Below are positions 5,721-61,951 of a stretch of 64,000 nt of DNA, piece after piece. Every line of letters starts with the position of its first letter. Position 1 is the first letter of the stretch. The DNA lies in NCBI GenBank assembly GCA_947631935.1, contig CANRNG010000001.1:5935-69934 (forward strand), read 5' to 3'. This DNA comes from an uncultured Erysipelothrix sp. (GTDB taxonomy: Bacteria > Bacillota_I > Bacilli_A > Erysipelotrichales > Erysipelotrichaceae). A program made the translations under genes and the position numbers. The notes under the pieces were generated by a model. The model was not told the DNA's origin. It was given only the letters and a program-made list of their open reading frames with translations, and did not search any database.

Positions 5721-6490
5721 TCATCACTTCCTAAATAGGCATCAATTACCAATTGATTATTTTTAATTTCACTGGGTGTGCCACTGGCAATCAGTTGTCC
5801 ATAATTTAGGACATGAATTGTATCACAAAGCGACATAACCAAGGACATATCGTGTTCAATTAATACGATCGTTAAATCAAACTTTTCATGAATTAAATTG
5901 ATAAAACCGATTAAATCTTGTGTTTCCTGTGGATTCATACCTGCTGCCGGTTCATCTAAAAATAAGGTTTTCGCTCCGGTTGCAAGGGCTCTGGCAATTT
6001 CCAAACGGCGTTGTTCACCATAGGACAACGAACTGGCCAATTGATGCCTTTTTTCAATTAAATCCGTAATGTCTAGAAATTGTTTGGCCTTTTCATGCAC
6101 AATGCGCTCTTCCCGGTAATAGGCTCTACTTCTAAATACAGCGCCTGCCTTCGAGTATTTAACACTTTCATTCATCGCAATTTTTATATTATCCAATAAA
6201 CTTAAATCCTTAAATAAACGTATATTTTGGAAAGTACGCGCAAAGCCCAACTTGGTTATTTCGTGTACTTTCTTTTTACTTAAGTTAATATCCTTGTCAC
6301 TGTGATAGGTAACACTGCCTTCAGTTGGACTATAAAATCCCGTTAAGCAATTAAAAAGGGTTGTTTTTCCAGCACCATTGGGTCCAATGATGCCAATTTT
6401 TTTTCCTTTTTCAACTTTAAAGTTAACATCTGAAATGGCGACAATTCCCCCAAAACGTTGGGTTAAATGATCAATCGTAAGTAGGGTCAT
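5717..6490 (-). CDS. livG: Branched-chain amino acid ABC ATPase
   Basis: GPNGAGKTT, RTFQNIRLF, LSYGEQRRLEIARAL. Confidence 0.92.
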   Translation of the reverse strand: MTLLTIDHLTQRFGGIVAISDVNFKVEKGKKIGIIGPNGAGKTTLFNCLTGFYSPTEGSVTYHSDKDINLSKKKVHEITKLGFARTFQNIRLFKDLSLLDNIKIAMNESVKYSKAGAVFRSRAYYREERIVHEKAKQFLDITDLIEKRHQLASSLSYGEQRRLEIARALATGAKTLFLDEPAAGMNPQETQDLIGFINLIHEKFDLTIVLIEHDMSLVMSLCDTIHVLNYGQLIASGTPSEIKNNQLVIDAYLGSDD

Positions 6491-57840: not shown

Positions 57841-58563
57841 TTAAACTTGTGAAGTCGTGGTATTGAACAATCCCACAAAAATCACGCCTCCAAAAATATT
57901 ACCCAAAGTAACCATACCGACATTGAGCAGTACAGATTTAAGAAGCACAGTTTTCAGCAACAATGGCAAAACAAAAATTGCCAAATTGGCCACACAGTGT
58001 TGAAAACCAATGACCACAAAAATAGCTACAGAAAGGTAAATCCCTAAAAACTGAACAACACCTTCCTTGTATTTGTAGAAAAACAACACACCCAAACCCA
58101 CAAACCAGTTACATCCAATGCCTGAAAGCAGTGCTTGGAGTGGGGTTGTTGATAGCTTTCCTTGGGCCATGGTTTCAAGGGTAGGGATTAAACTGGTCAA
58201 TATACCCGATCCATAACCCAAGACCACAACCGCAAAAATAACCCCCAGTGTATTTCCTATAAAAATATCAATCCAGTTTTTAATCATCTCTAAGAAAGTG
58301 ACTTCTTTTTTTAAGAAACCAATCCCAACAACGGTCATATTACCTGAGACCAATTCCCCACCCATGTATAAAACCAAGATCAATCCTATTGGAAAAAACA
58401 AAGCGCCCATTAGGGTTCCAACATGACTCCCAAACATATCAATGAATTTGATCATGGGTATGTATGCCAGCGCAATCATGGCTCCGGCCATAAAGCCCAT
58501 GACCAATTTTTGTTTTCTTGTACGCTTTACTTTTTCAATGCTCTTTTTAACAACTAAATTCAT
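57841..58563 (-). CDS. Formate/nitrite transporter (FNT) family channel
   Basis: GALFFPIGLI, GGELVSGN, GIGCNW, FQHCVAN. Confidence 0.88.
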   Translation of the reverse strand: MNLVVKKSIEKVKRTRKQKLVMGFMAGAMIALAYIPMIKFIDMFGSHVGTLMGALFFPIGLILVLYMGGELVSGNMTVVGIGFLKKEVTFLEMIKNWIDIFIGNTLGVIFAVVVLGYGSGILTSLIPTLETMAQGKLSTTPLQALLSGIGCNWFVGLGVLFFYKYKEGVVQFLGIYLSVAIFVVIGFQHCVANLAIFVLPLLLKTVLLKSVLLNVGMVTLGNIFGGVIFVGLFNTTTSQV

Positions 58564-59527: not shown

Positions 59528-61144
59528 TCATTTTACTCTTTTTTTATGAAAAATCAAAGCCGCATTTATAAACCCGTAAAATAAAGGGTGAGAACGGTTG
59601 GGTCTTGACTTAAATTCAGGCTGAAATTGGGTCGCAATATAGAAATCATGCCCCTTTAATTCAACCGCTTCAACCACTTGTCCATTGGGGCTAAAGCCAC
59701 TAATGACCAAGCCATTTTCCTCAATTATCTTACGATACTGATTGTTAAACTCATAACGATGACGGTGTCTTTCAAAAATCGAATCTTGATTATAAAGTTT
59801 TTGTATTAAACTGTTTTTTTCTAATTGAATTGGATGATTCCCAAGACGCATGGATCCCCCAAGAGACTGTATTTTAAGCTCTGGTTCAATCATGGTAATG
59901 ATGGAGGTATTTGTTTTTTCATCAAATTCAGTTGAATTCGCATCCTTCAATCCACAAAGATGCATCGCAATATCCAACAGTGCTGCATGCATCCCCATAC
60001 CAATCCCAAAATAAGGAATTTGGTGTTCACGTGCATACTTTGATGCCAAGATCATGCCTTGGGTACCGCGCTTTCCAAATCCTGTAGGAACGATGATCCC
60101 ATCCAGATCGTCTAATAAGTTATCCACATTTTGAACATTTAAATCCTCGGAATTAATCCATATTATTTCCGTGTCAGTGGCTTGTTGGTGAGAGGCATGT
60201 TGGATGGCTTCTGCAACGGAAAGATACGCATCTTTCAATTGAACATACTTTCCAACCAACCCCACTTTAATGCGATGTTCTAAGTTTTTAGAACGCTCAA
60301 TCATTTCAACCCATTCACGCATATCAGCTTCAGGTGCATCGTCAATCCCAAACTTATGTAGAATATAGGCATCCAAACCCTGATCTTGAAAGCGTAATGG
60401 CAGTTCGTATAAATTCGTTGCATTTCTAGATTCAATAATCGCATTGATATTCACATCACAAAAAAGGGCGATTTTCTCTTTCATTTCTTGTGTGAGGGGT
60501 TCCTCACAACGGGTCACAATAATGTTTGTTTTAATACCCAATGACATCAATTCTTTAAAACTGTGTTGGGTGGGTTTTGTTTTGAGTTCATTGGAGGCAG
60601 GTACTTTTGGGATGAGTGTTGTATGAATGAACAACACATTATCCCGTGGTTGTTCAGAATGAACTTGTCTGATTGCCTCTAAAAAGGGCAGGGATTCAAT
60701 GTCGCCTACGGTTCCTCCAATTTCGGTAATGATAATATCAGCACCTGAGTCCTTGGCGACGGTATATATTTTGTTTTTAATTTCATCGGTAATATGAGGA
60801 ATGACTTGAACTGTAGCGCCTTTATAGGCGCCTTGACGCTCTTTATCAATCACGCTTTGATATACCCTACCTGTAGTAATGCTTGCGTTTTTGGTGAGTT
60901 CCACATCAATAAAGCGCTCATAATGTCCCAGGTCTAAATCTGTTTCTGCCCCATCTTTGGTCACAAAAACTTCGCCATGTTGGTAAGGTGACATGGTGCC
61001 TGGATCCACGTTGATATAGGGGTCAAACTTCTGCATAAAGACAGAGAACCCACGATTCTTCATCAAGCGTCCGATTGAGGATGCAATTAAACCTTTGCCA
61101 ATGCCTGAAACCACGCCACCGGTCACAAATATATATTTTGCCAT
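59528..61144 (-). CDS. pyrG: CTP synthase with a degenerate glutaminase domain
   Basis: YIFVTGGVVSGIGKG, DPYINVDPGTMSP, KTKPTQHS; GAT domain reads GIGMGMH and QFQPEF. Start at MAKYIF. Confidence 0.95.
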   Translation of the reverse strand: MAKYIFVTGGVVSGIGKGLIASSIGRLMKNRGFSVFMQKFDPYINVDPGTMSPYQHGEVFVTKDGAETDLDLGHYERFIDVELTKNASITTGRVYQSVIDKERQGAYKGATVQVIPHITDEIKNKIYTVAKDSGADIIITEIGGTVGDIESLPFLEAIRQVHSEQPRDNVLFIHTTLIPKVPASNELKTKPTQHSFKELMSLGIKTNIIVTRCEEPLTQEMKEKIALFCDVNINAIIESRNATNLYELPLRFQDQGLDAYILHKFGIDDAPEADMREWVEMIERSKNLEHRIKVGLVGKYVQLKDAYLSVAEAIQHASHQQATDTEIIWINSEDLNVQNVDNLLDDLDGIIVPTGFGKRGTQGMILASKYAREHQIPYFGIGMGMHAALLDIAMHLCGLKDANSTEFDEKTNTSIITMIEPELKIQSLGGSMRLGNHPIQLEKNSLIQKLYNQDSIFERHRHRYEFNNQYRKIIEENGLVISGFSPNGQVVEAVELKGHDFYIATQFQPEFKSRPNRSHPLFYGFINAALIFHKKRVK

Positions 61145-61168
61145 AGACTCTATTTCCTCTCCAATTAT

Positions 61169-61220
61169 AAAAAAAATGACGCCCCATTTTGGAAGCGCCA
61201 TGCCCTTTTTTAGTTTATCA
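61169..61220 (-). promoter_or_regulatory. pyrG promoter and GGGC reiterative-transcription attenuator
   Basis: TGa-TAAACT, 6 nt, GGGC (61205-61202), hairpin ATGGCGCTTCC-AAAAT-GGGGCGTCAT, then T8. Confidence 0.85.
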
Positions 61221-61232
61221 AAAATCTAGAAT

Positions 61233-61559
61233 CTAATCAATGTCGATTTCAATCGGAGTATCATAGTCCTCCGCATACGCTTCTTGATCATAATCATCAT
61301 AATCATCCGCCAATTCAGGGTCGATTTTCAATGTATCTTCTGCGTAACGTTCGCGAAGATCCCAATTGTTTTTCTCAAGTGAGATGAAGCGGGAATCTAG
61401 CATCAATGCATTGTAGAATGACGCAATTTTTCGTTTCGCCATATCTTCTGTGAATCCAATTTCTGAACACACTTCTTTCCACAATATATTAAATGCAACC
61501 ACTTCTGTTTTATTTTTTAAATTTTCATAAGCTATATTGGTTAGTGAATTTCTAGCCAT
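61233..61559 (-). CDS. rpoE: RNA polymerase delta subunit
   Basis: FYNALMLDSRFISLEKNNWDLRERY plus acidic tail; upstream of pyrG. Confidence 0.9.
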   Translation of the reverse strand: MARNSLTNIAYENLKNKTEVVAFNILWKEVCSEIGFTEDMAKRKIASFYNALMLDSRFISLEKNNWDLRERYAEDTLKIDPELADDYDDYDQEAYAEDYDTPIEIDID

Positions 61560-61951
61560 GCTTCTTCCTCCTTTGTCCACACACATTTGAAAGTATGTAC
61601 ATCAATCAATTCCTCCCCTTGGAGTAAGTTATAAACAATTTTAATTGATGTGTCCAACACTTCCAATTCAACTACTTGAATGTCAAAGCGTAGTTCACCT
61701 TCTACTGAAATAATTCTGGCAATATTCTTGGCATTCAGTTCAAATTCCGCAAGTGTAACCCACTCATTCTCCCTTTTTAAAAGTACACGATCTTTACTAA
61801 AATCCAAGGTAGTGTAAGCGCCACATCCTTCTTGGTAAACCAAACGACGCATCGTTTTGAGGTCGTGTAAAGTCGCATAGCCATCCACATCCTTTATATC
61901 AACGGAGTTGGATTTTTGGGTTGCAGTAACTTTAACCTTAATGTCAATCAC
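61541..61951 (-). CDS. DUF1934 (YwiB-like) protein, GTG start
   Basis: Beta-rich 136-aa protein upstream of rpoE; promoter TTGACT-16-TATAAT at 61969-61996. Confidence 0.6.
   Translation of the reverse strand: MIDIKVKVTATQKSNSVDIKDVDGYATLHDLKTMRRLVYQEGCGAYTTLDFSKDRVLLKRENEWVTLAEFELNAKNIARIISVEGELRFDIQVVELEVLDTSIKIVYNLLQGEELIDVHTFKCVWTKEEEAWLEIH

Follow-up and report, generated by a model that had tools for sequence, protein, structure and literature searches.

How might a CTP synthase go on making cytidine triphosphate (CTP) once the residues that should release ammonia from glutamine have been replaced? The question is raised by the pyrG gene of an uncultured Erysipelothrix sp., found in a stretch of 64,000 nucleotides (positions 5,935 to 69,934 of contig CANRNG010000001.1, assembly GCA_947631935.1) that we refer to as the window. 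The product has the synthetase (amidoligase) domain of a normal PyrG joined to a class-I glutamine amidotransferase (GAT) domain that lacks its nucleophile and its catalytic His. We consider it probable, from the sequence and its relatives, that the protein is an ammonia-dependent CTP synthase with a retained pseudo-glutaminase domain, belonging to bacteria of ammonia-rich habitats.

A PyrG without a glutaminase triad

The minus-strand open reading frame at 59528-61201 is open throughout, and translation probably begins with the ATG at 61144, eleven bases after the ribosome-binding site GGAGAGG, giving a protein of 538 residues (P0001, hereafter the window protein). Pfam places CTP_synth_N at residues 3-266 (E 4.5e-125) and GATase (PF00117) at residues 303-527 (E 1.4e-29), while both NCBIfam PyrG equivalogs score far above their cut-offs (NF003792, 793.5 bits against 308; TIGR00337, 766.5 bits against 462.75). 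Residues were mapped to E. coli numbering by alignment to E. coli PyrG, and the features of the gene are as follows.

59528..61144, minus strand: pyrG coding sequence, 538 amino acids plus stop (open reading frame, profile searches)
60347..61138, minus strand: synthetase (amidoligase) domain, residues 3-266 (Pfam, alignment)
59564..60238, minus strand: class-I GAT domain, residues 303-527, fold kept and catalytic residues lost (Pfam, model)
60821..60829, minus strand: L4 loop, Ala106-Tyr107-Lys108 in place of E. coli Asp107-Tyr108-Leu109 (alignment)
60083..60085, minus strand: oxyanion-strand Gly351 replaced by Thr354 (ACA), motif PTGFG (alignment, codons)
59996..60001, minus strand: nucleophile Cys379 replaced by Gly382 (GGT, 59999-60001), and the oxyanion-hole Leu380 by Met383, motif GIGMGMH (alignment, codons)
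59987..59989, minus strand: His386 in place of Gln383, private to the window protein within its clade, clade A below (alignment)
59615..59623, minus strand: triad His515 replaced by Gln508 (CAG, 59621-59623); Pro509 comes next, then the kept Glu510 (equivalent to Glu517), motif QFQPEF (alignment, codons)

From the triad C379/H515/E517 the window protein therefore keeps Glu510 alone, and its nucleophile elbow reads G-I-G-M-G. A first-pass annotation of the window had reported the motifs PTGFG, GIGMGMH (GGT) and QFQPEF (CAG), together with an intact synthetase domain in an uninterrupted frame, and codons, alignment, open frame and complete set of synthetase-site residues all agree with it; its altered oxyanion strand likewise stands, the replaced glycine being equivalent to E. 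coli Gly351 and not to the Gly352 of the published G352P mutant. Since positions 351, 379, 383 and 515 hold Gly, Cys, Gln and His in 105/105 Cys-bearing relatives (Leu380 is found in 102/105), the replacements in the window protein are not chance variation, and the glutaminase domain holds nearly all of its replacements at positions that are otherwise conserved.

The synthetase site presents the opposite picture. K18, K40, D72, E140, D147, E149, K187 and K189 (E. coli numbering), which line the site for CTP and for adenosine and uridine triphosphate (ATP and UTP), are all present in the window protein and unchanged in the three Cys-less clades described below, as is the ammonia gate Pro54/His57/Val60 (P53, H56 and V59 in the window protein). 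The L4 Leu (E. coli 109), which couples glutamine-derived ammonia to the synthase site, is kept in no Cys-less clade, and L109 and D107 are both replaced in every one of them. Among the residues for activation by guanosine triphosphate (GTP), the window protein keeps R359, G360, G363, R433, R461 and R463 (R356, G357, G360, R440, R468 and R470 in E. coli), with E. coli T438 changed to Ser and E. coli E359 to Gln. An AlphaFold model has a predicted local distance difference test score (pLDDT) of 85-97 over most of the GAT domain and a template modelling (TM) score of 0.87 against the E. coli and T. thermophilus CTP synthase structures.

The gene is nearly identical in public runs from many separate studies, of wastewater, bioreactor, food production, compost, manure, sludge, gut and faeces; most of the runs come from habitats that we take to be rich in ammonia, such as wastewater, manure, compost and sludge. 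We compared the gene with contigs of four independent public runs, three of DNA (wastewater, bioreactor and food production) and one sludge metatranscriptome. Single contigs span the whole gene in two of the DNA runs, with 6 and 8 differences from the window, and a third covers it except for the first 146 coding bases, with 3 differences; metatranscriptome contigs tile nearly the whole gene with about a dozen differences, and their presence suggests that it is transcribed. Across all four runs there are 0 differences in the three key codons, and those at 59999-60001 and 59621-59623 in particular are the same throughout, bearing out the earlier argument against a sequencing error.

The nucleophile has been lost repeatedly

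Close homologues carry names that place the genome in Erysipelothrix. Among the best 120 matches other than the query, the nucleophile is Gly in 23 and Ser in 4, and a Cys-less PyrG occurs in 12 of the 26 pyrG-bearing species-representative genomes of the genus. Three Cys-less groups, clades A, B and C, stand out in a tree of 87 sequences. Clade A comprises 16 sequences including that of the window (support 100), and in it the nucleophile is Gly in 16/16, position 351 is Ser or Thr in 16/16, Leu380 is Met in 16/16 and His515 is Gln in 15/16, so the two catalytic replacements, whose fixation in the lineage the first-pass annotation had left to an alignment of the family, are indeed lineage-wide. 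At position 351 the clade A sequences other than the window's have Ser (AGT/AGC), the window Thr. Codons vary synonymously within the clade, Gly being written as GGT, GGA, GGG or GGC, Gln as CAG or CAA and Ser as AGT or AGC, and the replacements are therefore old and maintained.

A lone clade A sequence, P0005, carries the triad His (GCLFHPEF) and is nested among Gln-bearing sisters; a reversion, several independent His-to-Gln events or recombination with a normal allele are each possible.

The sister clades B and C include Ser variants in which His and Glu are intact. Clade B consists of 4 sequences with a Ser nucleophile and adjoins one normal sequence in the tree; clade C consists of 11 sequences with Ser or Gly at the nucleophile, some with a deletion in the L13 wing. 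A fourth Cys-less lineage, P0090 and P0109, lies inside a normal group and has again exchanged Cys for Gly, with His to Gln in addition in P0109; its gene order is the same (argS, small open reading frame, pyrG, fba, murA). In clade B the Ser codon is AGT, against TCT in genome G014, and the two losses are therefore separate. At least 4 separate losses of the Cys are required by a 142-sequence tree, and a single origin of all Cys-less sequences was rejected by the approximately unbiased (AU) test (p = 0.0002, for a group defined after inspection of the tree). The CTP synthase with replaced catalytic residues that the first-pass annotation recognised is thus one instance of these independent losses in the Erysipelothrix group and not something peculiar to this genome. 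The losses in this group are to Gly or Ser, the sole small residues one mutation away from TGT, which would explain why these alone are seen in the tight nucleophile elbow.

Selection acts on both halves of the gene

With the topology fixed, the ratio of GAT to synthase branch length is 3.1 in Cys-less lineages against 1.75 on the remaining Cys-bearing branches, and reaches 4.8 on the terminal branch of the window protein. Pairwise omega is about 0.02-0.07 in the synthase domain, the same as in normal relatives, and in the GAT domain about 0.08-0.28 for Cys-less pairs against 0.05-0.25 for normal pairs, all of these being rough bounds because synonymous divergence (dS) is saturated (>1) in every pair with DNA. 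Purifying selection acts on the gene, and constraint on its glutaminase domain is relaxed, far from absent.

A conserved candidate CTP-sensing leader

Upstream of pyrG lies a leader resembling a known regulatory device.

61168..61220, minus strand: pyrG leader, candidate CTP-sensing reiterative-transcription attenuator (sequence, leader comparison)
61220-61212, minus strand: extended -10-like element TGATAAACT
61205-61202, minus strand: initially transcribed GGGC (presumed transcript start)
61201-61176, minus strand: terminator hairpin with a pyrimidine-rich 5' arm, then a T-run

CTP-sensitive attenuation of B. subtilis pyrG works through two cis elements, an initial GGGC and a terminator hairpin with a pyrimidine-rich arm (PMC7039003). 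The layout is common to 19 distinct leaders from the genus and one close relative, from normal and Cys-less genes alike, with compensatory changes in the outer stem pairs of the hairpin, and in all leaders examined the coding strand is A-rich immediately upstream of GGGC. GGGC and the pyrimidine-rich hairpin are kept in every Cys-less lineage with a readable leader (11/12 loci). Given this conservation, expression of pyrG still seems to be tied to CTP shortage.

No substitute glutaminase, and a second amidotransferase with the same loss

The genome from which the window comes (1.56 Mb, 103 contigs, 98% complete) has one pyrG; a second copy, a search proposed by the first-pass annotation, was found neither there nor in 60 relatives, each genome holding at most one. 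That annotation had also allowed for an enzyme fed by a separate glutaminase, a suggestion for which we find no support: no stand-alone PF00117 protein was found in the genome, a glsA-type glutaminase (PF04960) is absent from it and from all 28 genomes of the genus, and the sole other class-I GATase match belongs to a GMP synthase in which the catalytic half of that domain is missing.

C5:42965-44242 (contig C5, outside the window; locus L033:1501-2781), plus strand: short GMP synthase (GuaA), 426 amino acids (profile searches)

The short GuaA has an intact PP-loop (SGGVDSS) and C-terminal domains (TIGR00884, 447 bits, cut-off 339), and retains only the first 78 of 190 GATase positions, about 90 residues including the nucleophile, His and Glu having been deleted. 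No separate GATase subunit for GuaA was found in the genome. In almost all genus genomes with a Cys-less PyrG the short form is the sole GuaA, and it stands alongside a full GuaA in genomes G017 and G025. In a genome whose PyrG has Ser (G004), GuaA is full-length (517 residues; locus L053, G004:C84:112-1110 and upstream), with the motif LTVGYGTQ against LG(I/V)CYGMQ in relatives and with FHPE kept; this is an independent Cys-to-Gly loss in the second amidotransferase. An intact GuaA nucleophile motif occurs in 0/11 genomes with a Cys-less PyrG against 12/14 with a normal PyrG (Fisher p = 2e-5, uncorrected for phylogeny and with many genomes being incomplete metagenome-assembled genomes). Two genomes with a normal PyrG, G021 and G001, have the short GuaA only, which suggests that GuaA changed before PyrG. 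The ATP-pyrophosphatase modules of GMP synthetases use external ammonia in vitro (PMC10526850).

How the enzyme would work

The N-terminal domain, judging from its invariant residues, would bind ATP and UTP and form 4-phospho-UTP, and cytoplasmic ammonia would reach the synthase site through the conserved Pro54/His57/Val60 gate, having entered most likely by the vestibule at the interface of the GAT and synthase domains, the route that exogenous ammonia takes in the E. coli enzyme. The C-terminal domain is predicted to be a folded pseudo-glutaminase, without nucleophile (Cys to Gly), general base (His to Gln) and one glycine of the oxyanion strand (Gly to Thr), while the L4 Leu that couples glutamine-derived ammonia to the synthase site is also gone; the domain has probably been retained as part of the ammonia path and of the enzyme's architecture. 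This would belong to a wider shift in environmental Erysipelothrix (wastewater, manure, compost, sludge), in which the triad glutaminase domains of both PyrG and GuaA appear to have been inactivated.

Among known enzymes the closest is canonical, glutamine-hydrolysing PyrG (EC 6.3.4.2; E. coli 1S1M, T. thermophilus 1VCO). The window protein, about 48% identical to that of E. coli, shares its length and its two-domain architecture, its synthase-site and ammonia-gate residues, its genomic position and the type of attenuator described for B. subtilis, and differs from it in Cys379, His515, Gly351, Leu380, Gln383, Leu109 and Asp107, all replaced; with these seven replacements, the protein should therefore be able neither to hydrolyse glutamine nor to couple that reaction to the synthase site. 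E. coli CTP synthase can use exogenous ammonia, and glutamine-dependent CTP formation is lost, with ammonia activity at or near wild type, in G352P (glutamine activity abolished, NH4Cl activity almost intact), in D107A and L109A (wild-type ammonia-dependent activity, glutamine-derived ammonia uncoupled) and in the enzyme modified by DON (6-diazo-5-oxo-L-norleucine; PMC9138612). The same elements are affected in these laboratory variants and in the window protein, namely the oxyanion strand with lid L11, the L4 loop and the nucleophile, the difference being that the former were engineered or chemically modified whereas the latter state is natural, combines several changes, is fixed in entire lineages and has arisen repeatedly. 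As the published mutants keep ammonia activity, and the natural protein changes the same elements and keeps the parts of the ammonia route, we infer an active enzyme with ammonia as its physiological donor. The naturally ammonia-only enzyme envisaged by the first-pass annotation thus gains support from the fixation and recurrence of the losses, the conserved synthetase domain and gate, purifying selection, the leader and the single pyrG. Two further properties of the E. coli enzyme bear on its ammonia route: GTP inhibits use of exogenous ammonia, and in the gate mutant V60F ammonia use is restored by GTP and, to a greater extent, by a glutamine site occupied by DON (PMC9138612).

Several observations weigh against this proposal, or against parts of it. 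The saturation of dS noted above limits what omega can say about selection. A purely structural role for the GAT domain sits uneasily with the invariance in clade A of the glutamine-binding residues Gly352, Phe353, Glu403 and Arg470 and of the GTP-binding residues Arg356, Gly357, Arg440 and Arg468. An Amt ammonium transporter (PF00909) is absent from all 28 genus genomes, so that ammonia must come by diffusion or internal deamination; being absent genus-wide, the transporter was uninformative and was dropped as a correlate of Cys loss. In the window's genome a type III glutamine synthetase and a GlmS whose Cys1 is intact are both retained, and a GatA-like amidase is present in all genus genomes; this genome thus both makes glutamine and draws on it, and a need to spare glutamine does not suggest itself as the driver in it. 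Scarcity of glutamine was accordingly not adopted as the driver for it, since glnA and glmS are present; the other 11 genomes with a Cys-less PyrG show no glnA and no full glmS (subject to genome incompleteness). Only the triad glutaminase domains of PyrG and GuaA, the two nucleotide amidotransferases, are affected by the loss. Finally, udk is found in 27/28 genus genomes, and pyrG was not found in G009 and G012 of the genus, nor in G029, G032, G034, G039 and G053 of the family or order. Both G009 and G012 have udk, and the pyrG-less lineages are probably wholly reliant on cytidine salvage. Where cytidine is at hand, salvage can therefore stand in for the enzyme, and pyrG may be dispensable.

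The glmS gene of the window's genome is split over contig ends, with its N-terminus (MCGIVAY...) at C49:6-158 and its C-terminus at C68:7198-7431, the latter directly upstream of the gene for type III glutamine synthetase, a split that has the look of a gap in the assembly rather than of a broken gene.

A regulatory role for the inactive domain is a possibility that we think less likely than not, and one that lies within the ammonia-only proposal. Because glutamine- and GTP-binding residues are invariant across clade A while the catalytic ones are gone, the dead domain might serve as a sensor or gate, binding glutamine and/or GTP without hydrolysis and so opening or plugging the ammonia entry, which would tie ammonia-dependent CTP synthesis to nitrogen and purine status. 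Mitochondrial carbamoyl-phosphate synthetase I is a free-ammonia enzyme, of a different family and found in animals, that has retained a glutaminase-like domain with its catalytic Cys replaced, the dead domain there being part of the allosteric apparatus (N-acetylglutamate activation). A sensor or gate in PyrG would parallel that inactive domain turned regulatory.

Alternative explanations

The main rival to an ammonia-dependent enzyme, in our view an unlikely one, is slow decay of a dispensable gene, with pyrG a remnant whose glutaminase half is failing first and CTP supplied by cytidine salvage (udk, cmk). Near-universal udk and the absence of pyrG from G009, G012 and the five further relatives would fit such a course, as would the faster evolution of the GAT domain in Cys-less clades and, in the window protein, the private changes Q383H, R394M and T438S and the high ratio on its terminal branch. 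Against decay, no frameshift or stop was seen in any recovered Cys-less gene despite divergence to 64-79% identity from the window, omega in the synthase domain is as low as in normal relatives, all catalytic and gate residues of that domain are invariant, the candidate CTP-responsive leader is conserved with compensatory changes, and the gene is covered by metatranscriptome contigs.

Less likely still is that glutamine remains the donor, either through a separate glutaminase feeding PyrG or through a rebuilt site, such as the Ser-His-Glu of the Ser variants in sister clades B and C, where His and Glu are intact. The kept glutamine-binding residues (Gly352, Phe353, Glu403, Arg470) and the GatA-like amidases of the genome could be read this way, but the window protein has Gly rather than Ser and lacks the His, the coupling residues L109 and D107 are replaced in every Cys-less clade, the genome encodes neither a stand-alone class-I GATase nor glsA, and the genes beside pyrG are housekeeping genes. 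We know of no partner glutaminase described for any CTP synthase.

A new main role other than CTP synthesis, as a non-catalytic filament or scaffold or in another amidoligase reaction, we regard as highly improbable; in several organisms CTP synthases are reported to assemble into filaments irrespective of catalysis, and the GAT domain is conserved without catalytic function, but the UTP, ATP and CTP site residues are all invariant, the leader keeps its CTP-sensing elements and the gene occupies the usual pyrG position next to fba. That the substitutions are sequencing or assembly artefacts is ruled out by the identical codons in contigs from four independent studies and by the same substitutions, with varying synonymous codons, in several species-level genomes.

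Neighbouring genes and related families

The genes flanking pyrG are housekeeping genes, in the usual arrangement next to fba. A gene of the formate/nitrite transporter family (PF01226, E 2e-52; 57841-58563, minus strand) lies between fba and murA; in L062 and L063, two related loci, the gene after fba (murA in L062) comes immediately behind it. Upstream of pyrG, at 61233-61951 on the minus strand, are two small open reading frames of 117 and 136 amino acids that overlap by 46 bases, neither with a Pfam match at 1e-5. The first has a very acidic C-terminus and is placed where L062 and L063 also have a small unannotated open reading frame.

The nearest known form to the short GuaA is the ATP-pyrophosphatase subunit of the archaeal two-subunit GMP synthetase, which can use external ammonia in vitro without a glutaminase (PMC10526850); in those archaea a separate GATase subunit is encoded, whereas this genome has none and its GuaA carries a vestigial stub of 78 residues. 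The family NF004836, 'CTP synthase C-terminal region-related (seleno)protein', matches residues 292-529 of the window protein through their shared fold, at 148 bits. As this is below the cut-off (260), and as NF004836 is a stand-alone domain with a Cys or Sec nucleophile, the opposite situation, membership was rejected.

Significance

A literature search for a natural Cys-less or ammonia-only CTP synthase, or for pyrG of Erysipelothrix, found no paper, and the Cys-less proteins are currently annotated as glutamine-hydrolysing CTP synthases. They are predicted to escape glutamine-analogue inhibitors such as DON and acivicin. The named and cultured species Erysipelothrix urinaevulpis has the short GuaA and a Ser variant of PyrG, the latter making the idea testable at the bench.

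Canonically, glutamine is taken as the physiological nitrogen donor of CTP synthase, and the Cys-His-Glu triad does not vary among the 105 normal relatives compared. If our proposal is true, a CTP synthase that has repeatedly evolved, and been maintained, without its triad would show free ammonia to be able to support CTP synthesis in the living cell, and it offers a natural test of whether the glutaminase domain is also an ammonia entry, a gate, a GTP site or an assembly element. The parallel inactivation of GuaA suggests that habitat has moved the nucleotide synthesis of these bacteria from glutamine to ammonia.

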